This document shows, in pieces, positions 8,732-32,183 of a stretch of DNA of 33,226 nt. A model generated the notes under the pieces. That model was not told where the DNA came from and did no database searches. It was given only the letters and a program-made list of their open reading frames with translations. Made by a program: the position numbers and the translations under genes. Within the stretch, counting starts at the first letter, position 1. Each line of letters opens with the position of its first letter. Origin of the DNA: a virus (taxonomy: Duplodnaviria; Caudoviricetes); IMG/VR virus record IMGVR_UViG_3300014208_000020, positions 1-33,226 of that record; one strand, given 5' to 3'.

Positions 8732-8977
8732 ATGAAATTTAAAGTTAATGACGAAATAATAGCAATAAAACCTTGCGATGGAAATGATGATTTAATTGGC
8801 ATAACTGGAAAAATTTTTGAAATAAGACCAGAGGAAGAACTTTCGTGTGGCGTTTATTTTGAAAGATTAGGAATTAATGGGGAAAACTATAGATATTGTT
8901 GGTGGTGCGAAGAAGATAGTTTATCTCTTTCTAAATGTATAAAAAACAAACAACTTTTATTTGATTTTGAAGAATAA
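8732..8977 (+). CDS. small protein with C-terminal tag variant (KQLLFDFEE)
   Basis: GAGG SD, N-terminus MKFKVND. Confidence 0.75.
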   Translation: MKFKVNDEIIAIKPCDGNDDLIGITGKIFEIRPEEELSCGVYFERLGINGENYRYCWWCEEDSLSLSKCIKNKQLLFDFEE

Positions 8978-8983
8978 AAAAAT

Positions 8984-9055
8984 TGGGATATCATATAATG
9001 GTTATTATCGAAAATTTTGAATTTTCTAATTTTGGTTCGATTCCAAATATCCCAG
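8984..9055 (+). tRNA. tRNA-Gln(TTG), very AT-rich
   Basis: TGGGATA/TATCCCA acceptor, GAAAA-TTTTGAA-TTTTC arm, GGTTCGATTCC. Confidence 0.8.
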
Positions 9056-9061
9056 AAGTTA

Positions 9062-9090
9062 TTGACAAAAAAAATTTTTTAGAGTATAAT
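9062..9090 (+). promoter_or_regulatory. repeated sigma70 promoter
   Basis: TTGACA-N17-TATAAT; leader nearly identical to the one at 10146. Confidence 0.9.
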
Positions 9091-9117
9091 TAGTGTATGA
9101 TATTAAGGGAGAATAAA

Positions 9118-9837
9118 ATGTCTCATTTTCAAAAACATCTTAACAAATACTATAAACTTGAAAAACAAGCAATTAATTTAAAAAGAAGAATTAATGAATT
9201 GTATGACATATCCTACACAGAGGAAGTTCCTATCGAAGTTCCGTATCATAGCGGATATTATTTTGAACTTGCCATAAAACAAAACATAAAAATAAAAGAA
9301 AAAAATAGAGCAAAAGTAAATTGGATTCTTGAAAACTCAAAAAAACTTTGGTATAAAGAAAAAAATCCAAGTTCATTGGAATATTATGATGTTTGTTTAG
9401 ATAAAACAATTGAAAAATTTGGTGGTAGTAGAAACTTTTTTCCAATCCTCACAGAAAGAAGTTATGAAAAAGTTCCTAGAGAATTAAAAAGTGATTTTCC
9501 TTTATTTTCTTTTCTTGACAAAGATTCCTTATTTAATCAAGAAATTAAATTTAATACGTGGAGTGGTGAAAAATATAATATGTTTTACATAACTCACGAA
9601 TTTAAAAAAATGTTTTATTTAAAAAGAAGTAAGAGAATAATTACTCATAGAAAAATAATCTTTGGCGAATTTGAAAGCGAAGAAAAAAAAATAAATGATA
9701 AACTATATAATGACGGATTTTACACAAGATTTGCCCCAGATGGAAGAAGATGTTGGGAATATGATTGGCATATTAGAGGAATTAACAAAAGGGACAACAA
9801 AAGGTTTTTTCCAGAAGAAGTTGATGAAGAGTTTTAA
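9118..9837 (+). CDS. hypothetical protein
   Basis: SD AAGGGAG, 239-aa ORF. Confidence 0.75.
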   Translation: MSHFQKHLNKYYKLEKQAINLKRRINELYDISYTEEVPIEVPYHSGYYFELAIKQNIKIKEKNRAKVNWILENSKKLWYKEKNPSSLEYYDVCLDKTIEKFGGSRNFFPILTERSYEKVPRELKSDFPLFSFLDKDSLFNQEIKFNTWSGEKYNMFYITHEFKKMFYLKRSKRIITHRKIIFGEFESEEKKINDKLYNDGFYTRFAPDGRRCWEYDWHIRGINKRDNKRFFPEEVDEEF

Positions 9838-9873
9838 TTATTTTTAATGTATAACTAAGTAAAGGAAAATAAA

Positions 9874-10119
9874 ATGAATAAAATAATTATTGAAACAGAC
9901 AGGTTTAAAAATAAATTCTGGACCTTGGATAACAAACTTCACCGAGTTGATGGACCAGCCGTTGAATATACTGATGGACATAAAGAGTGGTGGTTGGATG
10001 GAAAACTTCATCGAATTGATGGACCAGCTGTTGAATATGCTGACGGAAGAAAATATTGGTATTTGAGCGGTGTTAAAATTCAAGAAAAAGATTTTGTAAT
10101 TAATAAGAAAGGTCAATAA
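9874..10119 (+). CDS. LHRxDGPAxE repeat protein (2 repeats)
   Basis: 22-aa repeats; paralog of 32826-33215. Confidence 0.8.
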   Translation: MNKIIIETDRFKNKFWTLDNKLHRVDGPAVEYTDGHKEWWLDGKLHRIDGPAVEYADGRKYWYLSGVKIQEKDFVINKKGQ

Positions 10120-10145
10120 TTATTCACTTTCAAAAAGGAATAATG

Positions 10146-10174
10146 TTGACAAAAAAAATTTTTTAGAGTATAAT
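10146..10174 (+). promoter_or_regulatory. repeated sigma70 promoter
   Basis: TTGACA-N17-TATAAT. Confidence 0.9.
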
Positions 10175-10203
10175 TAGTGTATGATATTAAGGAGGAGATA
10201 AAA

Positions 10204-10404
10204 ATGAAGATAGTTTGGGCTATCGTATTAAACATAATCATGTTGATTTTGTTAATTTCAGTCGTGGGTCCTTTGGCAATAAATTTGTTGCCAAGTGGTA
10301 GTGGTTTTTTTGTTCTGCCGGTTCTTTTGGTATTACAGGTTCAATTGAATTTGTTTATATTTAAAAAAGAAATCAATAATTTGATTAAGAAAATTAAGGA
10401 GTAA
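10204..10404 (+). CDS. small membrane protein (2 hydrophobic segments)
   Basis: AGGAGG SD; upstream of SPFH gene. Confidence 0.7.
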   Translation: MKIVWAIVLNIIMLILLISVVGPLAINLLPSGSGFFVLPVLLVLQVQLNLFIFKKEINNLIKKIKE

Positions 10405-10406
10405 AG

Positions 10407-11966: not shown

Positions 11967-12105
11967 GTTTATTATTTTAAGAAAAATATCTGATGAAAAA
12001 GCTGTTCAGTGTGAAACAGGAATAACAGATTCTAAATTTTATAAATCAATTGGGAAAGAAGAAGCCCTAGAAGAATTATTGAAGGAGATAGAAGAAGATG
12101 AATAA
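11947..12105 (+). CDS. small hypothetical protein (52 aa)
   Basis: GAGGA SD; fills the gap before the ligase. Confidence 0.45.
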   Translation: MKKKKLRFIILRKISDEKAVQCETGITDSKFYKSIGKEEALEELLKEIEEDE

Positions 12106-13396
12106 ACCAAAAAATGAAAATTACGCAGGGGTAGTTGTTGCACTTACATCAATCATTCCATTGGAAGGAATGAATAATGTTGTTCATGCAAATATCTTTG
12201 GAAATCTTGTTATTGTTGGGAAAGATTCCAAAGAAGGTGATGTTGGTATTTTCTTCCCGATAGAAACTCAATTGTCAAACAAATATCTTGAAGAAAACAA
12301 TCTTTACAGAAAGCAAGAACTTAATAAAGACAAAACTTTGAAAGGATATTTTGAAGAGAATGGACGAATTAGAGCAATGAAATTTGCTGGCAAGTTTAAG
12401 TCGATGGGACTTTTTATGCCACTTCCTTCTGTTTCTTTTGCTCTTTCTAAAAAAGAGGAATTGAAAGTTGGAGACATTTTTGACGAGATCAACGGGATGG
12501 AAATCTGTAAAAAATATTTCAATCCAAAAAATGAACCAAAAGGGCCAAACAAAACTAAACAAACAAAGCACAAAAAAGTTGAATCAAAACTTATTGAAAA
12601 ACAATGGAATTTTCATATTGATACTCCGCAACTGGGAAGAACAATTCATGATTTGTCTCCTGATGATTTATGTGATGTTAGCACTAAAATTCATGGAAGT
12701 TCTTGGATCAGCGGGAAAGTTCTTTGTAAAAGAAAACTTAACCTATTTGAAAAAGTTTTACACAAACTTGGTGTAAATATTAGAACAGAAGAATATGACT
12801 ATATCTGGTCAAGCCGTCGCGTTGTAAAAAACTTGAATATGGATGAAAAAATTCATTTTTACGGAGAAGATCTTTGGGGAATGGTTCATGAAAAAGTAAA
12901 AGGTTTTCTTGATGACGGAATTACTTTCTACGGAGAAGTGGTAGGACAACTGCCAAACGGAAAATGGATACAGAAAGATTATGATTATGGAACAAATCCT
13001 GGTGAGTTCGGTATTTATTTTTATAGAATTACCCACACAAATTCTGCTGGAAAAGTTTTTGAATGGAGTATGAAGCAAGTTAGAGATTTTTGTAAAATGA
13101 ATGGGTTGAATATAGTTCCTCAACTTTATTATGGAACTCTGGGAGATTGGTTAAATAAAAGAAATATTGAGTGGACGAAAGAAAATTTTCATGAAGTTCT
13201 TCTAAAATCACTACAAAATGAATATCTTGAAAAGGATTCTGTTCTTTGTAAAAACAAAGTCCCAGAAGAAGGGATTGTTTTGAGAAGAGAAAGTAGTGAA
13301 ATTGATGTAAAAAAATTAAAGGCATTCAGATTTTTTGAAGAAGAGGGAAAACAAATTGACAGCGGGGAAGTTGATATGGAAACAGAAGAGAGTTAA
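12098..13396 (+). CDS. RNA ligase, Rnl2/DRB0094-like
   Basis: motif I KIHGS, YGEVVG, EEGIVLR, KLK; N-terminal accessory domain. Confidence 0.82.
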   Translation: MNKPKNENYAGVVVALTSIIPLEGMNNVVHANIFGNLVIVGKDSKEGDVGIFFPIETQLSNKYLEENNLYRKQELNKDKTLKGYFEENGRIRAMKFAGKFKSMGLFMPLPSVSFALSKKEELKVGDIFDEINGMEICKKYFNPKNEPKGPNKTKQTKHKKVESKLIEKQWNFHIDTPQLGRTIHDLSPDDLCDVSTKIHGSSWISGKVLCKRKLNLFEKVLHKLGVNIRTEEYDYIWSSRRVVKNLNMDEKIHFYGEDLWGMVHEKVKGFLDDGITFYGEVVGQLPNGKWIQKDYDYGTNPGEFGIYFYRITHTNSAGKVFEWSMKQVRDFCKMNGLNIVPQLYYGTLGDWLNKRNIEWTKENFHEVLLKSLQNEYLEKDSVLCKNKVPEEGIVLRRESSEIDVKKLKAFRFFEEEGKQIDSGEVDMETEES

Positions 13397-14740: not shown

Positions 14741-15907
14741 ATGTTTATAATTAATAGTTTATTAGATACAGATTTTTACAAATTAAATATGCTCCAACAT
14801 TTCTTTCTTAATAATTCTGATATTATTGGAAGATATGAATTTAAGTGTCGAAATAAAGGAATTGTTTGGACCGACAAAATGGTATCTGAAATAAAAAAAG
14901 AATTAAATCATCTGGAAAATCTTTCTTTTACAACAGATGAACTAACCTATCTAAAAAACACAAAACTTTACAAAGAAAGTTTCATTGAATTTCTTAGAGT
15001 TTTTAAATTTAACACAAAACATATAGCATTAAATTTAGTTGATGGAGAATTAAAAATTTCTGCAAAAGGGCCAATAATTTTTGTAAGTCCTTTGGAAATT
15101 CCAATTCTTGCAATTGTTAATGAAATTTATTTCAGAAATATGTTCCCAGATTTTGATTACTATAGAGCAACAATTAAACTTAATAATAAAGTAGAATTAG
15201 CACTAGAAAGTAAGATTAAATTTTCTGATTTTGGAACCAGAAGAAGATTTAGTCATGAGTGGCAAGATTTTGTTGTAAGAACTTTTGCCAAAAAACTTCC
15301 TAATGATATTTTTACTGGAACAAGCAATCCCTATTTTGCTATGAAATATAATATTCTTCCAATAGGAACTATGGCACATGAATATGTTCAACTTTTTCAA
15401 GCGCTTCCTAATGTTTCTCTTATTGATAGCCAAAAAACTGCTTTTCAAGAATGGGCAGAACTTTACAGAGGAAATCTTGGAATTGCTTTAAGTGATACTC
15501 TTGGAATTAAAAAGTTTTTAAAAGATTTTGATGGATATTTTGTTCGACTTTATGATGGAGTTCGTCATGATAGTGGAGACCCATTTGTCTGGGGAAGCGC
15601 TATGATTACTCACTATGAAAAGTTTGGTATAGACCCAAAAACAAAAAGATTAGTATTTAGCGATGGACTTGATTTTGAACTTGCTATAAGATTAAATAAT
15701 ACTTTTAAAGATAAAATAATGGTTGGTTTTGGAATTGGAACAAATCTAACTAATGATATGGGGAAAGATATTATTCCACTTCAGATTGTAATGAAACTTG
15801 TAGAAGTAAATGGAAAACCAGTTGCTAAAATTAGCGACACTCCTGCAAAGGGAATGTGTGAAGATGAAACATTTCTTTCTTATCTAAAAAAAATAATCGA
15901 GGATTAA
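14741..15907 (+). CDS. pncB: nicotinate phosphoribosyltransferase
   Basis: SLLDTDFYK, DFGTRRR, GTSN, GTMAHE, RHDSGDP, FSDGLD, GIGTNL, KISD. Confidence 0.93.
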   Translation: MFIINSLLDTDFYKLNMLQHFFLNNSDIIGRYEFKCRNKGIVWTDKMVSEIKKELNHLENLSFTTDELTYLKNTKLYKESFIEFLRVFKFNTKHIALNLVDGELKISAKGPIIFVSPLEIPILAIVNEIYFRNMFPDFDYYRATIKLNNKVELALESKIKFSDFGTRRRFSHEWQDFVVRTFAKKLPNDIFTGTSNPYFAMKYNILPIGTMAHEYVQLFQALPNVSLIDSQKTAFQEWAELYRGNLGIALSDTLGIKKFLKDFDGYFVRLYDGVRHDSGDPFVWGSAMITHYEKFGIDPKTKRLVFSDGLDFELAIRLNNTFKDKIMVGFGIGTNLTNDMGKDIIPLQIVMKLVEVNGKPVAKISDTPAKGMCEDETFLSYLKKIIED

Positions 15908-15908: not shown

Positions 15909-16217
15909 ATGAATAAAGTTTTTAAAGTAAAATGTCTCACAGTAGAAGAAATAAGAAAAAAGTTTTCACAAGAAATAATAGTCAAACATCATGACGAAAA
16001 TTGTGAACTATTTTGTGTTGAAAACTATTATTTAAGAACTAAATCTACTGATTATTTCTTTGTGCAAGAGTTTGACGGTCCCGGTTTCAAAGATGGTAAA
16101 TACTATAATATAGATTTAGTAGAAAATTATGGTTTAGAAAAACCATACTCTAGTTATATACCAAAGGATTATGTTGTTCCTTTTAGTAGACGAATTTTTC
16201 TTTTTGAGGATGATTGA
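15909..16217 (+). CDS. small protein with C-terminal tag (SRRIFLFEDD)
   Basis: shared tag; N-terminus resembles 17025 ORF. Confidence 0.8.
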   Translation: MNKVFKVKCLTVEEIRKKFSQEIIVKHHDENCELFCVENYYLRTKSTDYFFVQEFDGPGFKDGKYYNIDLVENYGLEKPYSSYIPKDYVVPFSRRIFLFEDD

Positions 16218-16218: not shown

Positions 16219-16506
16219 ATGATATTTAAACAAGTTGGTGAAAGTTTAACATTTAGAAAAGAAATAAATCTTGAAGAATTTGAAAGATTAACTTATAAAT
16301 ATTTCCCAAACATAACTTTTATTGCAGTCGATAGTTATCGGAAGGAAGTAAATAAATTTTTAGGGAAAACCATCACTGTTGAAAAAATCTACAAGCGTAA
16401 TGGGAAAGAAGAATTTTATTCATTTAAAGAATCTTCTCATGTTATTATTCCAGAGTTTTTTAGAGAGCATGGTTCAAAACGAATTTTTCTTTTTGAGGAT
16501 GATTAG
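16219..16506 (+). CDS. small protein with C-terminal tag (SKRIFLFEDD)
   Basis: SD GAGGA from the upstream tag; resembles 16722 and 26893 ORFs. Confidence 0.8.
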   Translation: MIFKQVGESLTFRKEINLEEFERLTYKYFPNITFIAVDSYRKEVNKFLGKTITVEKIYKRNGKEEFYSFKESSHVIIPEFFREHGSKRIFLFEDD

Positions 16507-16721: not shown

Positions 16722-17024
16722 ATGAAACTGAAAGAAATCGGAGATACAATAACTTTTAGAAGTGATTTAACGTTAGAAAAAATACATGAAATCGACAAAA
16801 AATGTTTTGGAGCAGAAATAAAATACCCAAGAGGAACTATTGATATTTTGTGGGATAATGAAATCCTTTCCAGATTAGGAACAAAAAATGTTATTTCAGA
16901 TATTTATGAAGAAGAAGGACCTCATAAACCTTGTTATGGTTTTGAAGGGGTTAGTTTAAAATTTCCTTATTTACTTTTTAAAGAACATTATTCACAACAA
17001 ATAATTCTTTTTGAGGATGATTAA
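16722..17024 (+). CDS. small protein with C-terminal tag (SQQIILFEDD)
   Basis: N-terminus KEIGDTITFR; shared tag. Confidence 0.8.
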   Translation: MKLKEIGDTITFRSDLTLEKIHEIDKKCFGAEIKYPRGTIDILWDNEILSRLGTKNVISDIYEEEGPHKPCYGFEGVSLKFPYLLFKEHYSQQIILFEDD

Positions 17025-17330
17025 ATGATTAAAACGTTTAAAGTAAAACTATTAAAAAGTTATGAAATAAAACAAAGATTATCAGAAGAAAGGTTAAATT
17101 TTTTAAAAGAAAATGAGTGTTCTTTAAGATCAATAATTAATCGTGATGATAGAGAAGTAATTTTTCACGTGAGCGAATTCGGAGAAAGCAATAAAAAAAG
17201 TAAAGATTTTTATAATGTAGAATATACCTACATTGAATTCAGCGACGAGAATCATCCTTTCAGATTTTATGTCCCAAAAGAATTTGTTACTAAACTGTCA
17301 GGGCGAATAGAAATTAATTTTGATGATTAG
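17025..17330 (+). CDS. small protein with tag variant (SGRIEINFDD)
   Basis: similar to 15909 ORF (FKVK.L...EI; YxPKxxV). Confidence 0.75.
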   Translation: MIKTFKVKLLKSYEIKQRLSEERLNFLKENECSLRSIINRDDREVIFHVSEFGESNKKSKDFYNVEYTYIEFSDENHPFRFYVPKEFVTKLSGRIEINFDD

Positions 17331-20661: not shown

Positions 20662-20672
20662 GGAGAAAATAA

Positions 20673-21683: not shown

Positions 21684-21686
21684 CTA

Positions 21687-21937: not shown

Positions 21938-22084
21938 AGCACATTGGCGTAATCGGGAATAAATACCGACGAAGTGTCGTTTTGTAGACACAGAGACATT
22001 TTTTACTGGAATAAGTTGACAGTAAAATAAACAACGTCCAAGATAATAAACTTGGAGATATGGGTTGGAATCCCATTTGTGTTT
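21938..22084 (+). ncRNA. tRNA-like RNA with multi-hairpin expanded core
   Basis: AGCACA/TGTGTT acceptor, TGGCGTAATCGG D-arm start, ATGGG-TTGGAAT-CCCAT T arm, 3 internal hairpins. Confidence 0.5.
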
Positions 22085-22093
22085 TTATTTTTT

Positions 22094-22196
22094 GCCCTCT
22101 TAGCTCATTTGGTTTAGAGCGATTGCCTTGTCGTGTATTTTTACAAAAGAATATAGGACAAGCAATAGGTGCTCGGTTCGAATCCGAGAGTGGGCA
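22094..22196 (+). tRNA. tRNA (Thr-TGT or Val-TAC) with a 28-nt insertion in the anticodon loop
   Basis: canonical TAGCTCA..GGT..AGAGC and GGTTCGAATCC; ATTGC/GCAAT stem extended by a long hairpin. Confidence 0.7.
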
Positions 22197-22202
22197 TTAC
22201 GA

Positions 22203-22274
22203 CGCAGGAAGAGAAAAGGTGACTATCCGGTCTCATAAACCGTGACATTCTGGTTTCGAGATCCAGTCCTGCTA
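22203..22274 (+). tRNA. tRNA-Met(CAT), initiator-like, divergent
   Basis: C1 mismatch, GCAGGA/TCCTGC, CGGT-CTCATAA-ACCG. Confidence 0.6.
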
Positions 22275-22314
22275 TACTCCTTGGTCGTCAGGGGAAAAGT
22301 TCGACCATTTTTTT

Positions 22315-22345
22315 GCCGCTGTGCTGGAATTGGTATAGGCGTTAG
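22315..22345 (+). pseudogene. 5' fragment of a tRNA-Leu-like gene
   Basis: GCCGCTGTGCTGGAATTGGTA; acceptor strand pairs with TAGCGGT at 23243-23249. Confidence 0.55.
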
Positions 22346-22414
22346 TTTTATTTTCGAACTGGAATACTCTATGTCATATATAATATGTAAAGATAATATT
22401 ATGAGGGTTCGAAA

Positions 22415-23164
22415 TTGACAACAAAATATACAAAAGAAAATTTAGAGGAAATTGTAAAGGAAAGTTTTTCTATATTTGAAGTTTTAAGAAGATTGGAATT
22501 AGTTTGTTCTGGTGGAAACCACTCGCACATTTCTAAATTAATAAAAGATTTTGAAATAGATAAGAGTCATTTTTTAGGACAAGGGCATAGTAAAGGCAAA
22601 ATATTGGGACCTAAATATACAAAGGAAACTTTTTTAGAAACTTTAAAAAAGGATACTAAAATTTTAGGTCATAGATTAGTAAAGAGATTGGTGTTTTTTG
22701 GGATCAAAGAAAGAAGATGTGAGATATGTAAAAATGATATATGGAACGAAAAACCAATACCGTTAGAATTAGATCATATTGATGGAGAACACTCCAATAA
22801 TGAATTAGAAAATATTAGAATATTGTGTCCAAATTGCCACGCACAAACAGATACCTATTGTTCTAAAAATATGAACAAAAAAATTTCTATCATAAAGTTA
22901 GAAAAGAAAAAATATTTTTGTGATTGTGGAAACGAAAAACATCGTAGTTCTAAAAAATGTAAAATCTGTAGTAATAGAAGTTTAGAAAAGTTTAACAATG
23001 GTTTGAAAATAGAGTGGCCTTCCGATGAAGAACTTTTAAAAGAACTAGAAGTTAAATCATATTTAGAGTTAAGTAAAGAGATTGGCGTGTGTGATAATTC
23101 TATAAGAAAACATTTAAAAAAAAGGATTGGATATTTTCCATCAAAGCGTAAAGTTAATAATTAA
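22415..23164 (+). CDS. HNH homing endonuclease
   Basis: CEIC...LELDHIDG...NN.LENIRILCPNCH, CDCG...CKIC, C-terminal HTH-like segment. Confidence 0.88.
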   Translation: MTTKYTKENLEEIVKESFSIFEVLRRLELVCSGGNHSHISKLIKDFEIDKSHFLGQGHSKGKILGPKYTKETFLETLKKDTKILGHRLVKRLVFFGIKERRCEICKNDIWNEKPIPLELDHIDGEHSNNELENIRILCPNCHAQTDTYCSKNMNKKISIIKLEKKKYFCDCGNEKHRSSKKCKICSNRSLEKFNNGLKIEWPSDEELLKELEVKSYLELSKEIGVCDNSIRKHLKKRIGYFPSKRKVNN

Positions 23165-23176
23165 AGATTCATATTT

Positions 23177-23250
23177 GCCCGAGTAGGAAAACTGGTAAAT
23201 ATACCACACTTAGATTATAGGTCGTGTGAGTTCAAATCCCACTAGCGGTA
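23177..23250 (+). pseudogene. chimeric/degenerate tRNA-Leu(TAG)
   Basis: GCCCGAG..CTGGTAA..CTTAG, T arm GTGAGTTCAAATCCCAC; own acceptor stem mismatched. Confidence 0.5.
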
Positions 23251-23320
23251 TTTTTTATAAGGAGTGATTGATGTATTTTATTCGTAATTGTGTAAATGAT
23301 ACTATATAATTAGTTTTTAT

Positions 23321-23401
23321 GCGTCATTATGTGAATCAGCAAACACGGGCGACTGTAAATCGCTTCCTTCGGGGTACTAGGGTCGGCACCTAGATGGCGC
23401 A
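23321..23401 (+). tRNA. tRNA-Tyr(GTA)
   Basis: GCGTCAT/ATGGCGC, GGCGA-CTGTAAA-TCGCT, long variable arm CCTTCGGG. Confidence 0.8.
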
Positions 23402-23404
23402 ATA

Positions 23405-23461
23405 TAGACACACACAGCAAACAAAAAACAACAATCTGTTAAATTGTATAAGTTGTGTCTA
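23405..23461 (+). ncRNA. ACAGCAA stem-loop RNA, copy 4
   Basis: TAGACACA/TGTGTCTA, ACAGCAA at 23414-23420, ACAAT-CTGTTAA-ATTGT inner hairpin. Confidence 0.75.
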
Positions 23462-23471
23462 GTTTTTTCTT

Positions 23472-23543
23472 TCTTCGATAGCTCAGTGGTAGAGCAGGGT
23501 GCTGTTAACACTCAGGTCGCTTGTTCGAATCAAGCTCGAAGAG
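23472..23543 (+). tRNA. tRNA-Asn(GTT)
   Basis: canonical cloverleaf, GGGTG-CTGTTAA-CACTC. Confidence 0.92.
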
Positions 23544-23546
23544 TAA

Positions 23547-23657
23547 AGTATTGTGGTGAAAAGATTTAACACAATGGCGAGGTAGCTCCTCTTGACGGTC
23601 TTGCTATAAGATGCCATAGTTCGCAACAATGAAAGGTTTAATTCCTTTCCAATACTT
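23547..23657 (+). ncRNA. tRNA-like RNA with branched anticodon domain
   Basis: AGTATTG/CAATACT, D arm, ATGGC/GCCAT enclosing two hairpins, GAAAGG-TTTAATT-CCTTTC. Confidence 0.55.
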
Positions 23658-23763
23658 TTAAAGAATATTATTGGTGGCAAGTACGATTATAGTTTGGCTA
23701 GGAAACATGATCCGGGGGCTGAAATTCCAAGGAGGTTAATAACTCTAGTATTCTTTTTTTTAC

Positions 23764-23873: not shown

Positions 23874-25067
23874 ATGAACAACAACGCAAAACGCCTTACG
23901 AGAGGTTTGGCTGCAAATATAAAAGAATTAATAGAGGTTGCATTTGAAGATCCGTCAACTAAAAGAGAAATTTGTAGAGGTGGCGGAAGTAATGGTGGGC
24001 AAATAACAAAATTACTTATGAACAAACCAACTGAAAACATACGAATTTCAAAAGAAGCATTGAAATTATGTATGGAAAATAACGTTTTCTTATATGATTA
24101 TTTTTTTCTTGGCAGGGATAATGCTAAACTAAAAGAAAAATATGGCAACTTTTTTTCGTCAAACTGGAAAAGTGCAGAAAAATGCCATGCAGTCGGTCAT
24201 TATATTACAGCAGATCACAATATTCCTAATACTTGCATTATAAATGAAATATTAGAAATAGCGGAAGAAGATATTGAAAAATTAACAGAGGAAAGAATAA
24301 TAAAAATATTAAACTCTCAATCTCTTGATTTTATAACTATTGAAGAAAATGATCTTTTGAATAAAAATGGATTTACTTTTTCTGGAACAAAAGAGGAAAG
24401 GGATTCAATTTGTAGTGAAAAAATAGATATAACAGATGTTTGGCTTACACCAGATCATATTATTAGTCAATTTTTTGAAACTTCTGGTTTAGATATAAAC
24501 CATTGTCTTGATCCTTGTGCTTGTGATGGAAGATGGTTAAAAGGAAAAGGTATCTCTGGAGATATTTTACCTATGAATAAATCAGTTGCTTGGCAAGATT
24601 TTTTAACGGTTGAATCTGTTCCAGAAGAAATTAAACATATAATTGGAAATATTCCATTTTCTTTAACTAAAGAATTTGTTGAAAAAGCATTTTTACTAAG
24701 AAGTGAAGCATATTTTTTAGTGAATGGTGACACTATAATGAATCATTATAATGGACATATAAAAAAAATATGGATAATCAATGGAATCGAAGGAAACCAA
24801 AAAGATTTTAGAAGTAGATGTGAATTTGAAACAATTGTTTTAAAAAAATCTGCTTTGTGGTGTTGTATAGTTCACTTAACAAAAGAAAAACAAGAAGAAT
24901 TTATAATAGAAAAAGATATTTCAAATGAACAAAAAAGGGATGGATTTCATGTAGCATTAGGAAGAAATACATTCATAAAAAGTTTAGTTCCTATTGAGAA
25001 TAATGAAAAAATAATAAGATTGCAAACAAAAGGAACGATTGATTATAAAAAGAAAAAGATAAGTTAA
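23874..25067 (+). CDS. two-domain protein with C-terminal N6-adenine methyltransferase-like domain
   Basis: DVWLTP, LDPCACDG, QDFL, IIGNIPF (NPPF variant). Confidence 0.65.
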   Translation: MNNNAKRLTRGLAANIKELIEVAFEDPSTKREICRGGGSNGGQITKLLMNKPTENIRISKEALKLCMENNVFLYDYFFLGRDNAKLKEKYGNFFSSNWKSAEKCHAVGHYITADHNIPNTCIINEILEIAEEDIEKLTEERIIKILNSQSLDFITIEENDLLNKNGFTFSGTKEERDSICSEKIDITDVWLTPDHIISQFFETSGLDINHCLDPCACDGRWLKGKGISGDILPMNKSVAWQDFLTVESVPEEIKHIIGNIPFSLTKEFVEKAFLLRSEAYFLVNGDTIMNHYNGHIKKIWIINGIEGNQKDFRSRCEFETIVLKKSALWCCIVHLTKEKQEEFIIEKDISNEQKRDGFHVALGRNTFIKSLVPIENNEKIIRLQTKGTIDYKKKKIS

Positions 25068-25071
25068 TTTT

Positions 25072-25215
25072 AGAAACATAGAACGACTAGAATGAACAAT
25101 GGATGAGGTCGGATTCCATACAGGATTAAGGGTAAACAAGTATGTAGCAAAAGTTATGACTTGCCTAGCGTATTTCACAGAAGGTAAATCTGTGTCGAGG
25201 TTCATTTATGTTTCT
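25072..25215 (+). ncRNA. unassigned structured RNA
   Basis: AGAAACATA/TATGTTTCT and ATGAAC/GTTCAT closing stems with internal hairpins. Confidence 0.4.
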
Positions 25216-25221
25216 TTATTT

Positions 25222-25305
25222 AGAAGGTATCCGGACGGCTCCGGGACCGGACTTGAAATCCGGAACGCGGGGAAACTCGTGGAGGATCGACACCTCTATC
25301 TTCTG
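25222..25305 (+). tRNA. tRNA-Ser(TGA)
   Basis: CCGGA-CTTGAAA-TCCGG, long V arm, G discriminator; long D stem. Confidence 0.75.
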
Positions 25306-25436
25306 TAATTGGTTCCTGACGAGGAAATCGAAAGTATTACGCGCCTCTCCCTAACTAGAATTGGGATGCTCACTATGTAGGTCAAATCGTGAAGTTGACG
25401 CTGGCACCACAGCAGAGGTACTCACTGTGGTATTTT

Positions 25437-25522
25437 GGGATAGACAAGCAGTAGGGAATTGTCTTGGATTGCTAATCCAAAGGAAGATGAAAATCTTTGA
25501 GAATCGTATTCTCGTTATCCCG
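25437..25522 (+). tRNA. tRNA-Ser(GCT)
   Basis: GGGATAG/TTATCCC, TTGGA-TTGCTAA-TCCAA, long V arm. Confidence 0.75.
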
Positions 25523-25528
25523 TTTTTT

Positions 25529-25614
25529 GGCACAAATAATCTAATCGGTATTAGAGACGGTCTGCAAAACCGTCCTGTGAAAACAGTTGTGTAGTTCGAC
25601 TCTACTTTGTGCTT
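25529..25614 (+). tRNA. tRNA-Cys(GCA) with tRNA-Sec-like 8/4 fold and long V arm
   Basis: GGCACAAA/TTTGTGCT, TCTAAT-CGGT-ATTAGA, GACGGT-CTGCAAA-ACCGTC, CTGT-GAAA-ACAG, GTAG-TTCGACT-CTAC, U discriminator. Confidence 0.78.
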
Positions 25615-25619
25615 TTTCG

Positions 25620-25647
25620 AAGGAATACAAATTGTATTCCTTTTTTT
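25620..25647 (+). terminator. intrinsic terminator ending the tRNA cluster
   Basis: AAGGAATACA-AAT-TGTATTCCTT plus T-run. Confidence 0.75.
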
Positions 25648-25661
25648 ATTTAGGAGGTATT

Positions 25662-26237
25662 ATGAACTTTTTTAATTTTTTTAAAAAGAAAATCGTTAGA
25701 GAAAAGGAAATTATTACAATATATAAAAGTCCAACAATTTATATTAAAAAAAGAGATACAAGTTTTTTGTCTTATAGTATAAATAATTATATCGTTAAAT
25801 TTGATGGAAATAATTACATTTCTAGTCAAAAATTTCAACGCCTTGAAACTTACAAAGAAACATTACCTGTCGCTTTTATAGAATTTTGCGGATATAAAGT
25901 ATTTAAAAAAAATGAAGAAGAAATAAATAAAATGATAATTGACGTTTATGTTAAAAATTTAAATTTCGCTAGTTCTTTGTTTTCTATAATATCATCATTC
26001 CCTGATGCTGTGGAATCTTTTGATAAATTAAATAAAAACGAAGAAGTTAAAAAAGATCAAAGTGAATTTAGTGACAACTTTTCTTACTTGTTTGGAAAAC
26101 TAAGAAAAAATGAACTGGATTTACAAATAGGGATGGGGAATTTATACGACGATCTCAAGACCCTTATGGATGAATTAGAAGAGAAAATATTTACAGAAAT
26201 TTCTTCTGAAACAAAAATTAAAAAAGAAAAGTATTGA
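25662..26237 (+). CDS. hypothetical protein
   Basis: AGGAGG SD before ATG 25662. Confidence 0.72.
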   Translation: MNFFNFFKKKIVREKEIITIYKSPTIYIKKRDTSFLSYSINNYIVKFDGNNYISSQKFQRLETYKETLPVAFIEFCGYKVFKKNEEEINKMIIDVYVKNLNFASSLFSIISSFPDAVESFDKLNKNEEVKKDQSEFSDNFSYLFGKLRKNELDLQIGMGNLYDDLKTLMDELEEKIFTEISSETKIKKEKY

Positions 26238-26262
26238 CAAAAAAATATTTTTAATGTATAAT
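26234..26262 (+). promoter_or_regulatory. repeated sigma70 promoter
   Basis: TTGACA-N17-TATAAT. Confidence 0.9.
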
Positions 26263-26279
26263 TAAATAAAGGAAAATAA

Positions 26280-26600
26280 ATGACAAAATACAGAACAGTT
26301 TCAAACGGATATTATGATGAACTTGAATATCAAAAAGAATTTAAGTTTCTTTTCTTTAAAAGAAACTCTTGGCATTCTGTTTGGCGACCTTATTATGATG
26401 AAATTTGGGGAAGAACTCTCGACTATAGACATAATTATATAAATTCGATCAACACTAACATAAAAGATTTTGTAACTAAGTGGCCTAATATTAAAAATTA
26501 TTTTGATTGGGCACTTGAAGAACAAGAAAAACTTGAAGAAAAAATAAATAAAGAAAGAATAAAAATAGAATTAAAAAAACAAGAAGTAAAATATTTTTAG
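26280..26600 (+). CDS. hypothetical protein
   Basis: AAGGA SD after promoter. Confidence 0.7.
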   Translation: MTKYRTVSNGYYDELEYQKEFKFLFFKRNSWHSVWRPYYDEIWGRTLDYRHNYINSINTNIKDFVTKWPNIKNYFDWALEEQEKLEEKINKERIKIELKKQEVKYF

Positions 26601-26623
26601 AGTATAATTAAATAGAGGGAAAA

Positions 26624-26896
26624 ATGAAAACAGAAGACATAAAAATAGGAATGAAAATAAAAATTCCTACCGTAAAAAGAACATCTGGTGCTATTTTAAC
26701 TAAAGATTGTTCTGCTTATTTACACGCAACTGAACTTAATCAAAATTTTTTATATATTGTTAGTGGCTTTTATAATAACGGTCATGGCGATGAAGTTACA
26801 GTGGGTGCCACTAAAAAAATTATGAAAGTTCTTTTTATGCAAAAGATTTGCAACCATATTCAAATCAAATTTTTCTTTTTGAGGATGAATAAATGA
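26624..26896 (+). CDS. tagged-family small protein with probable frameshift at A7 (26813-26819)
   Basis: IKIGM N-terminus; adding one A gives ...DLQPYSNQIFLFEDE*. Confidence 0.72.
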   Translation: MKTEDIKIGMKIKIPTVKRTSGAILTKDCSAYLHATELNQNFLYIVSGFYNNGHGDEVTVGATKKIMKVLFMQKICNHIQIKFFFLRMNK

Positions 26897-27189
26897 AAGA
26901 ATACAAAGTTGGCGACACAATTACAATCAGAAAAGACATCACAATAGACAATATAAATGAATTAATGAAACCATATTTTGGAGCAGTTATGGATAATTGG
27001 GAACATTATTACAATATGTTAGTTGATAATAATTTTCTTGAGAAAAGATTTAAAATAATAGAAAGAAAAAACTGGATATATAGGCAAGGTGATGTTTATA
27101 AACTTGATTGGAAAAGACCTAATTATATTAGTCCAGAGTTATTTGTAGAAAGTTTTTCTCGGCAAATAATTTTATCTTGGGAGGACTAA
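26893..27189 (+). CDS. small protein with tag variant (SRQIILSWED)
   Basis: YKVGDTITIR N-terminus; similar to 16722 ORF. Confidence 0.78.
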   Translation: MKEYKVGDTITIRKDITIDNINELMKPYFGAVMDNWEHYYNMLVDNNFLEKRFKIIERKNWIYRQGDVYKLDWKRPNYISPELFVESFSRQIILSWED

Positions 27190-27357
27190 ATGAAAACATT
27201 TGAAGATGAATATAAAAATCTTAAAAACAACTTACCAAAACTTAAAACTTATTGGAATTGGTATAATTTTTGTAGTGGTTTAAGAAAAGAAATTGGATTG
27301 AATCAAAATCAATTTAACGTTCTTGTTCAACAAATGAGAGAAATATATTTGAAATAA
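27190..27357 (+). CDS. small hypothetical protein (55 aa)
   Basis: GGAGGA SD plus ATG. Confidence 0.55.
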   Translation: MKTFEDEYKNLKNNLPKLKTYWNWYNFCSGLRKEIGLNQNQFNVLVQQMREIYLK

Positions 27358-27363
27358 TAATAT

Positions 27364-27492: not shown

Positions 27493-27738
27493 ATGAAAGA
27501 AGAAGACATTAAGGTTGGTGATATTGTAAAAATTAAATCAAAAACAGTTCCCAATTTCGAGCGAGACAAAATTATTCCTTTTGAAGGAGTAATACAAGAA
27601 ATAAAAACCTATTCTCATTTAAGCATGTATTACGGTGAAGAAAAAAACAAATTACTTTTTATTATAAATTGTAGTTTTTATTGCTTTGAGGATTTTGAAA
27701 AAAAATCACAACAACTATTTCTTTTCGAGGATGATTAA
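27493..27738 (+). CDS. small protein with C-terminal tag (SQQLFLFEDD)
   Basis: IKVGDIVKI N-terminus; GAGG SD. Confidence 0.8.
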   Translation: MKEEDIKVGDIVKIKSKTVPNFERDKIIPFEGVIQEIKTYSHLSMYYGEEKNKLLFIINCSFYCFEDFEKKSQQLFLFEDD

Positions 27739-28047
27739 ATGATTAATTTAGATGATAAAATTTTTAAACAAAAAGAATTAAACATTAATAATTTTAAATT
27801 TAGAACAAGAGAAGATTCTTTAAAAACTTATAATGATCTTGGTGTAGGAAGATTTTTTCTTGAATTTTTTTGGGACAGAATAGAGCACGATTTGCCAGAA
27901 GTTTTTACAATAGAAAACAGAATAAATCAAGATAGGATATTTTTTTACGATAAAAATCTTGAAGGGTTATTTAATATAACATATATTTCTTTTATTTGTT
28001 ATTTTGAAAAAAAATCACAACAACTTTTTCTTTTTGAGGATGAATGA
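27739..28047 (+). CDS. small protein with C-terminal tag (SQQLFLFEDE)
   Basis: shared tag. Confidence 0.8.
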   Translation: MINLDDKIFKQKELNINNFKFRTREDSLKTYNDLGVGRFFLEFFWDRIEHDLPEVFTIENRINQDRIFFYDKNLEGLFNITYISFICYFEKKSQQLFLFEDE

Positions 28048-28593: not shown

Positions 28594-28824
28594 ATGAACC
28601 AACACAATTTTAAAATAGGTGAAAGATTTCTTATTAAAAATCTTGAATATAATAGCATATGGAATAACAAAAACACAGAGGTTTATGATTTAAGTTCTGA
28701 ACGTTGCTACATTATGTTAATTGATAATAAAAGTATTACAACTTCATTTTCATTAACTGATACAAAACTTATAACAAATCATTTCCAATTTAACCAACGA
28801 ATATTACTTTTTGAAAATGAATAA
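28594..28824 (+). CDS. small protein with C-terminal tag (NQRILLFENE)
   Basis: FKIGE N-terminus. Confidence 0.8.
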   Translation: MNQHNFKIGERFLIKNLEYNSIWNNKNTEVYDLSSERCYIMLIDNKSITTSFSLTDTKLITNHFQFNQRILLFENE

Positions 28825-28882
28825 CTATTGACAAAAAAAATTTTTTAGAGTATAATTAAAGAGTAAGGAAGAAAAAAAAATG
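28792..28882 (+). repeat. about 90-bp direct repeat (tag codons, promoter, SD, ATG); second copy 29177-29266
   Basis: near-identical: one substitution and one A indel. Confidence 0.9.
28828..28856 (+). promoter_or_regulatory. repeated sigma70 promoter
   Basis: TTGACA-N17-TATAAT. Confidence 0.9.
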
Positions 28883-29209
28883 TTAGACGAAAAATTAAAA
28901 ATATTTAAAATTGGTGAAAAAGCAACTTACGTCTTTCAAGAAGATTTGGAAAATTATTTTGTTGAAGATGGTGCTGAAATGACTTTTGTTAGGTATAATG
29001 AAATGGATAAAAAATATCCATACAGTTTTTCTGTTAAAGCAAGAGAATTTATATATCCAGAACACGTTGAAAACGTAGATGAAGACAGTGATGAAGATTA
29101 TGACGAAGAAGATGTAATTCTTGGTGAATACATTATTAAAAATATTGATTTTGCACTCAATGAAGTGAAGAAAAAAAACCAACGAATATTACTTTTTGAA
29201 AATGAATAA
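28880..29209 (+). CDS. small protein with C-terminal tag (NQRILLFENE)
   Basis: FKIGE N-terminus, acidic insert. Confidence 0.8.
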   Translation: MLDEKLKIFKIGEKATYVFQEDLENYFVEDGAEMTFVRYNEMDKKYPYSFSVKAREFIYPEHVENVDEDSDEDYDEEDVILGEYIIKNIDFALNEVKKKNQRILLFENE

Positions 29210-29455: not shown

Positions 29456-29759
29456 AATAGTTTACGAAAAAACAAGATTTATATTAACAAAAATTGCCAA
29501 TTTATATTCTAAGCGTTTAAATGTAAAATTTTCTTGCGTTCATGAAATTAGTTTAGAAGAAATTGATAATGATGAATATTATCTTGTTAATGATAACACG
29601 AAAGAAAAAATTTTTATGTTTGATCAAAAATTTGTTAGTAGTTCTATTAAATATTATGGGTGCAAAGATGCTAAAAAAATGATTTTTGGTTTGGCTCTTG
29701 GAGGATTTTTAAATGAAAAACATAAAAGCAGGAATGAGAGTAAAAATTCCAGAGCGTGA
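29448..29759 (+). CDS. hypothetical protein
   Basis: overlapping coupled ORF. Confidence 0.6.
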   Translation: MDKIVYEKTRFILTKIANLYSKRLNVKFSCVHEISLEEIDNDEYYLVNDNTKEKIFMFDQKFVSSSIKYYGCKDAKKMIFGLALGGFLNEKHKSRNESKNSRA

Positions 29760-30006
29760 TGAATATGGAAACCTTTTAGAAACCAAAACAACTGGAATTT
29801 TGATTGCCTGTCTTAAAAAAGGTTATCCAAATTATTGTGTTAGATTTGATAGCGAAAATGTTTTTGCTCATAATTATTATCCAGGACCAGAATTTTGTAT
29901 TTTTCATACTGGTGAAGAAAATAAGAATTTGAGAATTTATTACTATTATGGTATAGAAGATGTTGAACCATTTTCACAACAGTTATTCCTTTTTGAAGAT
30001 GATTAA
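29713..30006 (+). CDS. small protein with C-terminal tag (SQQLFLFEDD)
   Basis: IKAGMRVKI N-terminus. Confidence 0.8.
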   Translation: MKNIKAGMRVKIPERDEYGNLLETKTTGILIACLKKGYPNYCVRFDSENVFAHNYYPGPEFCIFHTGEENKNLRIYYYYGIEDVEPFSQQLFLFEDD

Positions 30007-30009
30007 CTA

Positions 30010-30038
30010 TTGACAAAAAAAATTTTTTAGAGTATAAT
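30010..30038 (+). promoter_or_regulatory. repeated sigma70 promoter
   Basis: TTGACA-N17-TATAAT. Confidence 0.9.
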
Positions 30039-30310
30039 TAAAGAGTAAAGAAAAAGAAAATTTGTTGGATTGTCCAAAGATTGACATCTAATGAACGAAA
30101 GTTCATTGTTGAATTATTTTAGGAGGGATTACTTGAAAACTTGAATAAACTTTCTCATTGTGAGAAAAAATTAAGTGTGTTTAGGGCCACCATTTAAAAC
30201 AAAGTTTTAGTGCTGGCATAATATCTGAAATTATTCCGTTGTTTCTATCCTAATTAGGATGGACGTTATGTGATAATTATTTTCTTTTAGAACTTAGGAG
30301 GTTCAATTAT

Positions 30311-30712
30311 ATGATTACTATTTACAAGGTGACAAAAACTGACGAGAGGCTTTTCGCTGACTATGTGGTTCCTGGTGTTTCTGCTGACCAGATTCTCGTG
30401 ACTTCGGTTGCGGCTCGTTACGAAGATTTCGAGGGAGTGAAGAAAGGTTCCACTTTCACCGTCAAGATTGCTGCGGCAAATCGTGGTTCGTTCGGCGTGT
30501 TCAAGGAACTCAATGCTGAAACATTGAAAGATGTTCAGAACGTTCCTTTCGAGTTCGACATCAACTCCCTTTCTTGGAATGTGAGCAACGGTATTCTTCG
30601 TGTGTCCATTCCTCGCAAGGCCGAGTTTGTTGGCAAGACGGTTGTTGCTGACACAAGCGCCGAGATTTTTGGTGAAGTTCTCCCAGAGAACTCTGTCACT
30701 GCTACTAAGTAG
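30311..30712 (+). CDS. small heat-shock (Hsp20/alpha-crystallin-like) protein
   Basis: VPGVSADQILV and NGILRVSIPRK; AGGAGG SD. Confidence 0.7.
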   Translation: MITIYKVTKTDERLFADYVVPGVSADQILVTSVAARYEDFEGVKKGSTFTVKIAAANRGSFGVFKELNAETLKDVQNVPFEFDINSLSWNVSNGILRVSIPRKAEFVGKTVVADTSAEIFGEVLPENSVTATK

Positions 30713-30822
30713 TTGACAATGGCGGGAATGAGATAAGTCTCGCCGTATTGGGTAAGGCCGCAACGGATAAGCGGTAAGGATATAAATTTCTGTGAAACGT
30801 GTTGTTCTTAATTTATTAGAGA

Positions 30823-30961
30823 TTTGGGTTCGATTTGCAGTTCCAAGGAGTTGCATAAGTAATACCTCTCTATGGTTTGGAGTATATGATAATTATTTAA
30901 TAATCTATTCGCTACTTCCCATAACTCTATTTCACAAAGCGGTTCAATTCCGCAACCCAAA
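30823..30961 (+). ncRNA. tRNA-like RNA (acceptor stem and T arm only)
   Basis: TTTGGGTT/AACCCAAA, GCGG-TTCAATT-CCGC. Confidence 0.4.
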
Positions 30962-30972
30962 AAAAGTTTAAG

Positions 30973-31160
30973 AAAAGTAATGACAGAACGGATTGTTGTA
31001 GCGTGCGAACGTGCGAACTAGGTATCAAGTGAAATGTTAACGAGTTGCAAATTAATCATTAAGGCAAAAATCTATTAGATCTAGCATGAGAAGAAATGCC
31101 GGTGTTAGAAAGTAACTCCATTTGAAAATCGCAGATTTGGTTCAATTCCAAGAACTTTTT
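30973..31160 (+). ncRNA. large tRNA-like RNA, copy A
   Basis: D arm TGACAGAACGGATTGTTG, GNRA hairpin, long insert, T arm TTTGG-TTCAATT-CCAAG. Confidence 0.6.
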
Positions 31161-31188
31161 AAAAAACTATTTTATTAAGGAGAAAAAA

Positions 31189-31575
31189 ATGAGTGATATT
31201 CAAGAAAATGCTTTTTTTGATAGCAACGAAAATTTAGTTGATAGATTTGATGAAGATGTCGAAGAAATGGACGAGGAAGAAATCGAAAACGAAGAAGAAA
31301 ACGATCTTGAAGAAAACTCATTTTCTTTAATAGATTTTAATGAAGATTATGATTATGATGAAAATGATTCTTGTTTTTTCGAAGATGAGGAAATTTTGTC
31401 AATCGTTCGCCATGGAATTATTTGGAATATTATTGGTTTCACTAAAAATAAACTTTATATTTTACAAGACCCACAATCAAATTGGATTATTTTCGTTAAT
31501 GACTATGACATTGATGATAATCAAACCGAAAAATCGAAAAAAGAAGAACATTCTGATGGACTTTTTGAACTTTAA
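31189..31575 (+). CDS. highly acidic hypothetical protein
   Basis: AGGAG SD; D/E-rich N-terminal half. Confidence 0.72.
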   Translation: MSDIQENAFFDSNENLVDRFDEDVEEMDEEEIENEEENDLEENSFSLIDFNEDYDYDENDSCFFEDEEILSIVRHGIIWNIIGFTKNKLYILQDPQSNWIIFVNDYDIDDNQTEKSKKEEHSDGLFEL

Positions 31576-31591
31576 GTAATAAATAAATTAA

Positions 31592-31795
31592 CTAAGTAAT
31601 GGCAGAACGGATTGTTGCACTATGAGAATAGGTAATTTTAGGTATCACTAGAGAACGGAAGCACTCATTGTATTTGAACTTTGAATGTTAGATAAAATTT
31701 ATTTTTATTTGATGTGATAATAGTAAAAGAAAAGTCATCACCAACCCTCTAGCCGGTGATAAATTACGGACTTGATTCAATTTCAAGAACTTAGT
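31592..31795 (+). ncRNA. large tRNA-like RNA, copy B
   Basis: same 5' and 3' motifs as copy A, with compensatory changes. Confidence 0.62.
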
Positions 31796-31817
31796 TAATT
31801 TTTTAAAAGGAAAAATA

Positions 31818-32183
31818 ATGACAGAAGAAGAAATAATGAGAACAAACTCAAAAACAATATTTAAATTTACAAAAAGCATGAGTGGTTTAATTTTAGTTAA
31901 TTTAAAAGCAAATATTGTTTGTGATTTACAAGGATCTCCTTTGAACGCAGATGTTGCTGGAGGTTCACATAATAGCAAAAGTTTTCTTTTTTACTTTGGA
32001 AATTTTCACAACAAAGAAGATTTTAAAGACCAACAAGGGTGTAGTAAATACTTACACGATGGTGGAAATACTGCTGAAGGTCTTTATAATAACCAAAATT
32101 ATAAAAAATATTTTATGTGGTGGATTGAATGTGATATAGTAAAATTATATTCAAATCAAATATTTCTTTTCGAGGATGATTAG
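31818..32183 (+). CDS. small protein with C-terminal tag (SNQIFLFEDD)
   Basis: shared tag; WW motif like the 8732 ORF. Confidence 0.8.
   Translation: MTEEEIMRTNSKTIFKFTKSMSGLILVNLKANIVCDLQGSPLNADVAGGSHNSKSFLFYFGNFHNKEDFKDQQGCSKYLHDGGNTAEGLYNNQNYKKYFMWWIECDIVKLYSNQIFLFEDD

Follow-up and report, generated by a model that had tools for sequence, protein, structure and literature searches.

Proteins that bind the bacterial beta sliding clamp do so through short linear motifs of the forms Q-phi-x-[LM]-[FL] and Q-phi-x-[LM]-x-[FL], in which position 3 is tolerant, acidic flanks have been noted, and the Gln is important, though not essential (PMC11139829). The subject of this analysis is a C-terminal peptide (termed here the tail) that ends fourteen small open reading frames (ORFs) within a 33,226-nucleotide stretch of viral DNA, namely the entire IMG/VR record IMGVR_UViG_3300014208_000020 (handle G000; termed here the window). 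The tail is like these motifs in its C-terminal location, its two registers, the Gln-aliphatic start and Leu/Phe anchors of most of its copies, and its acidic flank. It differs from them in that the known clients are replication and repair enzymes, whereas its own carriers are orphan proteins of 76-121 residues (aa) present in at least 14 copies, and in that 22 of the 36 tails collected here deviate from the strict consensus.

The clamp motif and the use of the clamp by phages are already known. MuC and Mor of phage Mu, both small proteins, exploit the host clamp through motifs at their termini, and their overproduction is lethal via the motif (PMC12867686); MuC, however, is one lone transcription activator whose fold is defined, and no Mor/C domain was found on the tagged proteins here. 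The Caulobacter toxin SocB inhibits host replication via the clamp, through its motif pocket (reviewed in PMC9690074), and Gp168 of Staphylococcus phage Twort also inhibits host replication via the clamp, but by blocking the DNA channel rather than the pocket (PMC8565349); both are single genes without a multi-copy tail, and family searches of the tagged proteins here matched no antitoxin partner. In phage T4 a single C-terminal peptide, which works with gp45, is common to gp43, gp55 and gp33 (PMC9690074). The phage examined here resembles T4 in its virion genes and in possessing a gp55-like sigma factor, and differs in that gp45 was not found in its incomplete records, in that its polymerase and sigma are tailless, and in that this polymerase belongs to family C (DnaE). 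Among the papers searched, none describes multi-copy clamp-motif tails on small phage orphans.

All fourteen ORF ends occur on the + strand exactly where an earlier note, made from the letters of the DNA, had placed them, and the presence of a shared tail on these ORFs is confirmed. The tail has the overall form [QR]-[LI]-x-hydrophobic-(x)-[FW] followed by an acidic end (14/14 finish in two or three acidic-rich residues), and falls into eleven pentamers, of the form [QR]-[LI]-[FLI]-L-F-E-[DN]-[DE]-stop, and three hexamers. Its carriers are listed here together with their orthologues in G001, a related contig of 24.8 kb:

8732 to 8977, + strand: 81-aa SH3-like orphan, hexamer tail QLLFDFEE; the G001 orthologue (41% identity) ends QYLFDFDK.
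15909 to 16217, + strand: 102-aa orphan, tail RIFLFEDD; modelled as a folded body with an unconfident tail; the G001 orthologue (48%) ends EIKIFEDN.
16219 to 16506, + strand: 95-aa orphan, tail RIFLFEDD; paralogue of 16722 and 26893.
16722 to 17024, + strand: 100-aa orphan, tail QIILFEDD, strict motif.
17025 to 17330, + strand: 101-aa paralogue of 15909, hexamer tail RIEINFDD; the G001 orthologue (45%) and P0005 end QIELNFED.
21447 to 21683, + strand: 78-aa orphan, tail QLLLFEDE, strict motif; promoter directly after.
26624 to 26892, + strand: frameshifted gene, tail QIFLFEDE in a frame other than that of the start.
26893 to 27189, + strand: 98-aa orphan, hexamer tail QIILSWED.
27493 to 27738, + strand: 81-aa orphan, tail QLFLFEDD, strict motif.
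27739 to 28047, + strand: 102-aa orphan, tail QLFLFEDE, strict motif; shares 93% identity with 27493 over its last 44 nt.
28594 to 28824, + strand: 76-aa orphan, tail RILLFENE; then a promoter.
28880 to 29209, + strand: 109-aa orphan, tail RILLFENE; its last 30 nt match those of 28594 exactly; then a promoter.
29713 to 30006, + strand: 97-aa SH3-like orphan, tail QLFLFEDD, strict motif; then a promoter; the look-alike P0119 ends EIVIDFES.
31818 to 32183, + strand: 121-aa orphan, tail QIFLFEDD, strict motif.

The one gene for which the earlier note had assumed a frameshift repair, 26624, is indeed broken: its start frame runs to a different end at 26896, leaving the tail outside that frame, and the letters at this place are identical in a contig of sequencing run X1, from which the window itself may come. 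When the tail is written as a degenerate DNA pattern, the window yields 10 matches versus 0 in 100 shuffles. Of 54 hand-listed window genes (a count that excludes the broken 26624), 13 show a looser peptide pattern within their final 10 residues, versus 86 of 7905 internal windows (1.1%), a terminal enrichment with a binomial p of 2e-14. The 13 intact carriers, all of 76-121 aa, are found among the 34 genes of at most 130 aa; none of the 20 larger genes has a tail.

Related phages carry tails as well. In the G001 orthologues of 8732, 15909 and 17025 (41-48% identity) both codons and residues have changed and the hydrophobic anchors are retained; where the window has 16219, G001 has a different body, which ends QLFLFEDD, and a further G001 gene ends EIKVFEDD. 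A promoter search led to a 159,813-nt contig of 29.9% GC, G006, which has only repeats in common with the window and which adds five tails, one of them on a hairpin-repeat protein whose window paralogues are without it. G008, reached via a portal-family pattern, has eight Gln-first hexamers (for example QLELDFIG, QLEFEF, QMEFDFDV and QYLLDL) on seven ORFs of 45-87 aa and one 470-aa cysteine-rich protein, or 8 of 151 ORFs versus 0.3 expected (p 9e-10). The same Gln-only pattern is enriched in the window (8/59 ORFs, 0.2 expected), in G001 (3/51, 0.1) and in G006 (4/200, 0.3), and shows no enrichment in G007 (1/233), G009 (0/80), G010 (0/79) or G011 (1/47). Seven of the 50 hits of a profile search end in a tail: four are the query proteins, and three others, all short, end QYIFDFK, EIVIDFES and RLELFDD; the other 43, mostly longer repeat-domain proteins, lack it. 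Taken together with the unenriched relatives, this indicates that the body type is widespread, and that the tail is lineage-restricted and patchy.

Three further observations concern the ends of small ORFs in these relatives. A 50-aa ORF of G006 (158377-158529) has a hexamer-like QYEFDF near its N-terminus rather than at its end. About a dozen ORFs of 45-95 aa in G008 (4059-5518, 7538-7687, 20582-23677, 70375-71083 and 75166-75603; L244-L247) have in common an N-terminal M-x-K-I-x-x-L-x-x-[LIMA]-F, which, as judged from sequence, is a second shared tag. Tandem paralogues starting M-K-[IK]-R-x-G-F-V-S-N-S-S occur in G008 (24930-27361) and in G007 (34575-36189).

The likeness to clamp-binding motifs to which the earlier note had drawn attention holds at the peptide level, and the tails of relatives strengthen it. 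Thirty-six tails were picked for comparison: 14 from the window, 5 from G001, 5 from G006, 8 from G008 (one row being re-registered by hand) and 4 from database proteins, several of them close kin. (Left out as loose or doubtful were G001 690, 6416 and 19804; G006 26066, 150878, 153316 and 158377; G008 6399 and 44999; four loose hits in G007; one each in G009 and G011; and P0138.) Sixteen are pentamers and 20 hexamers. Position 1 is Gln in 25 (9/14 in the window), Arg in 8 and Glu in 3; position 4 is Leu in 23, Phe in 8, Ile in 4 and Val in 1; and the last anchor is Phe in 31, Leu in 4 and Trp in 1. As in clamp clients, the motif is free at the C-terminus or flanked by acidic residues in both registers, and one G008 tail is identical to the phage-display winner QLELDF (PMC11139829).

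The same table bears on a different kind of groove. Small heat-shock proteins have an IXI motif that is likewise a C-terminal hydrophobic-x-hydrophobic strand, which binds the beta4-beta8 groove (PMC4823740), and the tail might accordingly be a strand for the groove of a small heat-shock protein, another chaperone or a protease, serving protection, sorting or turnover. G006 does have Hsp20 and ClpP genes, and in five of the 36 tails an initial Arg or Glu is followed by [IV]-x-[IV] at positions 2-4. The other 31 lack this pattern, however; it is unenriched at C-termini (10 in the window versus 8.5 expected; 17 in G008 versus 21.2); a fixed aromatic anchor (Phe at 5 or 6) and a Gln, which are foreign to IXI, are left unexplained; and G007 has Hsp20 without tails. 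This explanation thus appears quite unlikely.

The bodies to which the tail is attached match no Pfam or PHROGs family at E<=0.001 in any of the 13 intact cases. The earlier note had described a library of variable small domains with highly divergent bodies, most of which start with a K[IV]G[DEM]-like strand. A start of the form K/E-[IVA]-[GN]-[DEM] is found in 8 of the 13 intact proteins, and to call the domains unrelated would go too far: the bodies include two or more paralogue groups (15909/17025 and 16219/16722/26893, E<1e-4), and the remaining bodies share a weak N-terminal likeness only; what does stand is that in related contigs the tail occurs on other kinds of body. One body, that of 15909, was modelled (four-row alignment; mean pLDDT 84) and resembles SH3/KOW barrels even though it is without a K-I-G-D start: its best VIA match has Z 3.6 and rmsd 3.2 over 64 aligned residues, and most of 50 rows are of SH3/KOW type, all with Z <4. 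Foldseek against viral models gave 0 hits at E<=0.001 for 15909. Atlas leads for 8732 at 0.87-0.88 also point to an SH3/KOW-type fold, and the G001 orthologue has a KOW match at E 0.022. Many of the tagged bodies may well be diverged SH3-type paralogues.

In that 15909 model, the only one to speak to the point, the tail (residues 94-102) has a pLDDT <50, as a flexible segment would. This weighs on the proposal that the tail acts within the family itself, either as an extra strand pairing with the barrels to form homo- or hetero-oligomers or through an acidic end that shields its carriers from C-terminal proteases. Acidic C-termini can protect proteins from such proteases, some tails have alternating beta-branched residues, and many of the bodies look related. 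Yet the tail is unconfident in this monomer model; it also occurs on a hairpin-repeat protein, on short helical-looking ORFs and on the 470-aa cysteine-rich protein; and several G006 and G008 tails have no acidic end. A role confined to the family is therefore very unlikely.

The tails also have DNA in common. Unlike bodies end in near-identical 3' DNA of 44 nt (27493/27739), 41 nt (21447/G006 144345), 30 nt (28594/28880), 34 nt (26624/31818) and 25 nt (15909/16219). The synonymous codon variation that the earlier note had taken as a sign of selection on the peptide is real, but modest: among the 11 pentamer tails codons vary at 6/8 third, 3/8 first and 1/8 second positions, while Leu at position 4 is CTT in 11/11 (versus 37% in large genes) and Arg at position 1 is CGA, one transition from the Gln codon CAA, in 5/5 (versus 5% in large genes). 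These fixed CTT and CGA codons imply that the tail copies share DNA ancestry and are not independent. Codon differences among nine distinct tails number 55 synonymous versus 82 non-synonymous. Moreover, the Glu codon is GAG in 7/7 window tails that abut the next gene and GAA in 4/4 that precede a promoter (G001 has one GAG ahead of a promoter), a split by context which indicates that the acidic end doubles as the Shine-Dalgarno site of the next gene; two untagged coupled genes, 13397 and 14741, also end Glu-Asp. Because the tails were copied as DNA and their acidic end has this second role, synonymous variation within the window is weak evidence of peptide selection, although relatives do keep the anchors with other DNA.

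A further copy of the cassette, the fifteenth and absent from the earlier note, is inverted; it is given here with a representative of the promoters that flank the tails:

10112 to 10150, - strand: inverted, slightly decayed tail-cassette copy between short GTCAA/TTGAC inverted repeats, directly after gene 9874-10119.
21687 to 21715, + strand: sigma70-consensus promoter (TTGACA-17-TATAAT), one of 12 near-identical in the window.

The X1 contig agrees with the inverted copy letter for letter over 10012-10173. The repeat-protein gene 9874-10119 is without a tail because the cassette is inverted after it, which puts a stop before the cassette; its G006 paralogue 144345 carries the cassette in coding orientation. 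Four of the 12 consensus TTGACA/TATAAT promoters directly follow a tail, and the promoter -35 box shares nucleotides with the right arm of the inverted repeat of the cassette.

Could the tail then be mainly a DNA cassette--a ribosome-binding site plus promoter-flanking homology that drives gene shuffling, with the peptide riding along? The common 3' DNA of 25-44 nt, the fixed codons, the inverted copy, the GAG/GAA split, the untagged Glu-Asp ends and the proportion of non-synonymous differences are all as this explanation predicts. It does not, however, account for the fact that a stop codon directly closes every one of the window's 11 forward core copies, 10 of which are in frame with an intact gene; that the G001 orthologue tails and all G008 tails keep their anchors despite different DNA; that the hexamer tails have no ribosome site in common; or that second codon positions are the least variable. 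Glu, too, is kept where there is no ribosome site to keep, as the four GAA codons before promoters attest. An explanation at the DNA level alone is thus unlikely, and the reading adopted here is that the tail is both: a peptide that appears to be selected, that spreads by ectopic copying, and that is loosely held on single members.

The gene beside the inverted copy belongs to a multi-copy hairpin-repeat family (H-R-x-D-G-P-A units, with a weak DUF6745 match), members of which occur in the window at 9874-10119 and 32826-33215 and in G006 at 144345-144614 and at the contig end, each behind or before a strong promoter. Summed contig depth suggests that this family has many more copies than were assembled, and a joint seen in each of the two runs hints at a further 32826 paralogue whose end is a variant tail.

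If the tail is a clamp-binding peptide, then its partner could be the clamp of the host or one encoded by the phage. No beta-clamp or gp45 domain was found in the window, G001 or G006, no PF02768 in G007-G011 and no PF09116 in G006-G010, all of which are incomplete records; G007 holds a syntenic replication block with DnaB and yet has no clamp domain. The strict motif occurs in 0/14 C-terminal pieces of the family's DnaE, versus QLSLF in 2/2 aligned bacterial DnaEs, and in 0/15 of the G006 replication, transcription and chaperone proteins checked. The shared tail is likewise missing from the G006 DnaE pieces, gp55-like sigma, gp32, exonuclease and primase (no gp33 was identified). An apparent degenerate motif in G006 DnaE was rejected, since a wider alignment revealed a family-wide segment without Gln or Phe.

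These findings bear on whether the tail docks instead on a hub encoded by the phage, be it a divergent clamp or a protein of the virion or its assembly, whose gene sits in unassembled genome or went unrecognised. G006 is an estimated 69% complete and is without the DnaB gene that G007 and G008 carry; a gp55-like late sigma is present, the T4 counterpart of which works with the clamp (PMC9690074); and Arg or Glu at position 1 would suit a hub with preferences of its own. Nevertheless, the clients expected of such a hub are, unlike those of T4, without tails; the 201-kb syntenic G007 lacks a clamp domain; and one conserved 246-aa candidate gave no clamp look-alike (a weak result from a poor model). 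A phage-encoded hub is therefore rather unlikely. Because no phage clamp was found and the DnaE pieces of the family are without the motif, the host clamp is the likeliest partner, and the chance that the tails bind it may be put at about even.

Several points weigh against binding to the host clamp. Only 7 of the 14 window tails, and 14 of all 36, fit the strict consensus; 8 tails are Arg-first and 3 Glu-first, 13 have Phe, Ile or Val at position 4, and position 3 in the window is mostly Phe, Leu or Ile rather than Ser or Asp. Binding to the E. coli clamp is weakened by Glu at position 1, by Ile or Phe at position 4 and by Trp at the last anchor (PMC11139829). The tail counts overstate independence, because the pattern used to select tails was itself shaped on the clamp motif and because the DNA was copied. 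The tail is not required across the phage family, since G007 (201 kb and syntenic) has 4/233 loose matches (p 0.39) and G009, G010 and G011 are likewise unenriched. The clamp searches covered incomplete genomes only, such that a divergent phage clamp may have been missed or may lie in a gap. Co-folding of 15909 (an Arg-first tail) with the E. coli beta clamp scored 0.00, which is no answer and counts neither for nor against.

As to which clamp may be involved, three clamps from a candidate-host phylum, that of the spirochaetes, all retain the Met-Pro at the C-terminus, and their T-D-G-x-R-L motif contains Lys. At that place the E. coli clamp presumably has His. Speculatively, this Lys might change the preference at tail position 1.

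Under the favoured reading, small accessory proteins would plug a shared peptide, acting as a free linear motif, into the partner-binding pocket of the host beta clamp. Made early and in quantity from strong sigma70-type promoters, many tailed proteins would occupy the clamp, compete with host Pol III and other clamp clients, and thereby jam host replication; this would come at little cost to the phage, inasmuch as its DnaE is without the motif and no phage clamp was found. Given the strong promoters, the many copies and the motif-less phage polymerase, competition for the clamp is somewhat favoured over the tethering of bodies to clamp-marked DNA. The tagged family would then be a redundant, drifting set, of which the Arg- and Glu-first tails, the frameshifted gene and the inverted cassette may represent weaker or dead members. 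A more elaborate scenario, in which the phage polymerase gave up its clamp motif, a family of clamp-pocket competitors expands by means of a mobile tail-plus-promoter cassette landing on orphan 3' ends, cassette inversion acts as an on/off switch, and the barrels bring separate anti-host or anti-defence activities to host forks, is improbable as a whole.

The window itself is probably an accessory segment of the same phage as G006 or of a very close myophage, of 200 kb or more; no contig joins the two. Among 53 window proteins scanned there are no virion or replication genes; its contents include a Ro/TROVE-like protein, an RNA ligase, nicotinate salvage enzymes, an Apyc1-like hydrolase, a kinase/phosphatase/vWA set, homing nucleases and 7 tRNAs. 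G006 (126 proteins scanned) encodes T4-like capsid, portal, terminase and sheath proteins, gp55-like sigma, gp32, UvsX, a split DnaE polymerase, ClpP and Hsp20, and terminates within a paralogue of the window's last gene. The window is read as part of a larger phage because in G007, which has the same core order, a TROVE-bearing accessory block precedes the sheath gene, the very gene that opens G006. The ends of the window overlap:

33129 to 33226, + strand: 98-nt end overlap with 1-98, inside a multi-copy repeat-protein gene and promoter.

At this repeat the summed contig depth is 140, versus about 11-37 elsewhere, and the overlap is likely to be an assembly closure at a repeat. A true 33-kb circular replicon is unlikely, given that there are no replication or virion genes, that the ends lie in a multi-copy repeat, and that in relatives the sequence runs on into other genes.

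The window occurs in sequencing runs of groundwater metagenomes. The Apyc1-like protein has 57-62% matches in three of the 301 genomes from the phylum to which a Brevinema record belongs (Brevinema being a spirochaete) and none in two other phyla (0/251 and 0/251), which is a weak hint, resting on sequence matches, of a spirochaete-phylum host. ClpP gave no host pointer, matching many phyla at 57-65% identity among the matches listed. Cultured phages gave distant matches only, and scans with a portal alignment (among the matches listed), the capsid protein and a DnaE pattern yielded no further close relative.

Other features of these genomes are recorded here in their own right. A metallophosphoesterase gene (window 1924-3642) has a LAGLIDADG-bearing insertion, probably an intein, that is missing from its 244-aa G001 orthologue, and a nicotinamidase-like gene with, behind it, a triad of vWA, PP2C phosphatase and kinase genes (3662-7747) is missing at the matching place in G001. 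A likely counter-defence and repair set comprises the Ro/TROVE-like protein, RNA ligase, NAPRTase and Apyc1-like hydrolase (249-1814, 12098-13396, 14741-15907 and 18239-19213), with which a Tad3 match in G006 (57807-58391) is grouped. A methyltransferase-like gene in the tRNA region (23874-25067) is 64% identical to G008 46305-47450, which suggests recent exchange between otherwise distant phages. The GC-richer segments 30060-30310 and 30712-31188, around gene 30311, are without a convincing ORF and are possibly structured RNA. In G006, DnaE is spread over three ORFs that have inteins and are separated by many genes (127340-139055), and there are two gp23-like capsid genes, at 9571 and 14643.

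If binding to the host clamp holds, then a dozen or more uncharacterised phage genes share one address, and SH3-like phage orphans, which are common and unexplained, become testable by a cheap peptide assay. The tails would also constitute a natural series of ligands for the clamp pocket, among them Arg- and Glu-first forms overlooked by searches for the consensus, and would illustrate how a linear motif can spread through a genome as a short DNA cassette. More generally, a multi-copy, motif-based shut-off of host replication would join the single-gene cases already known.

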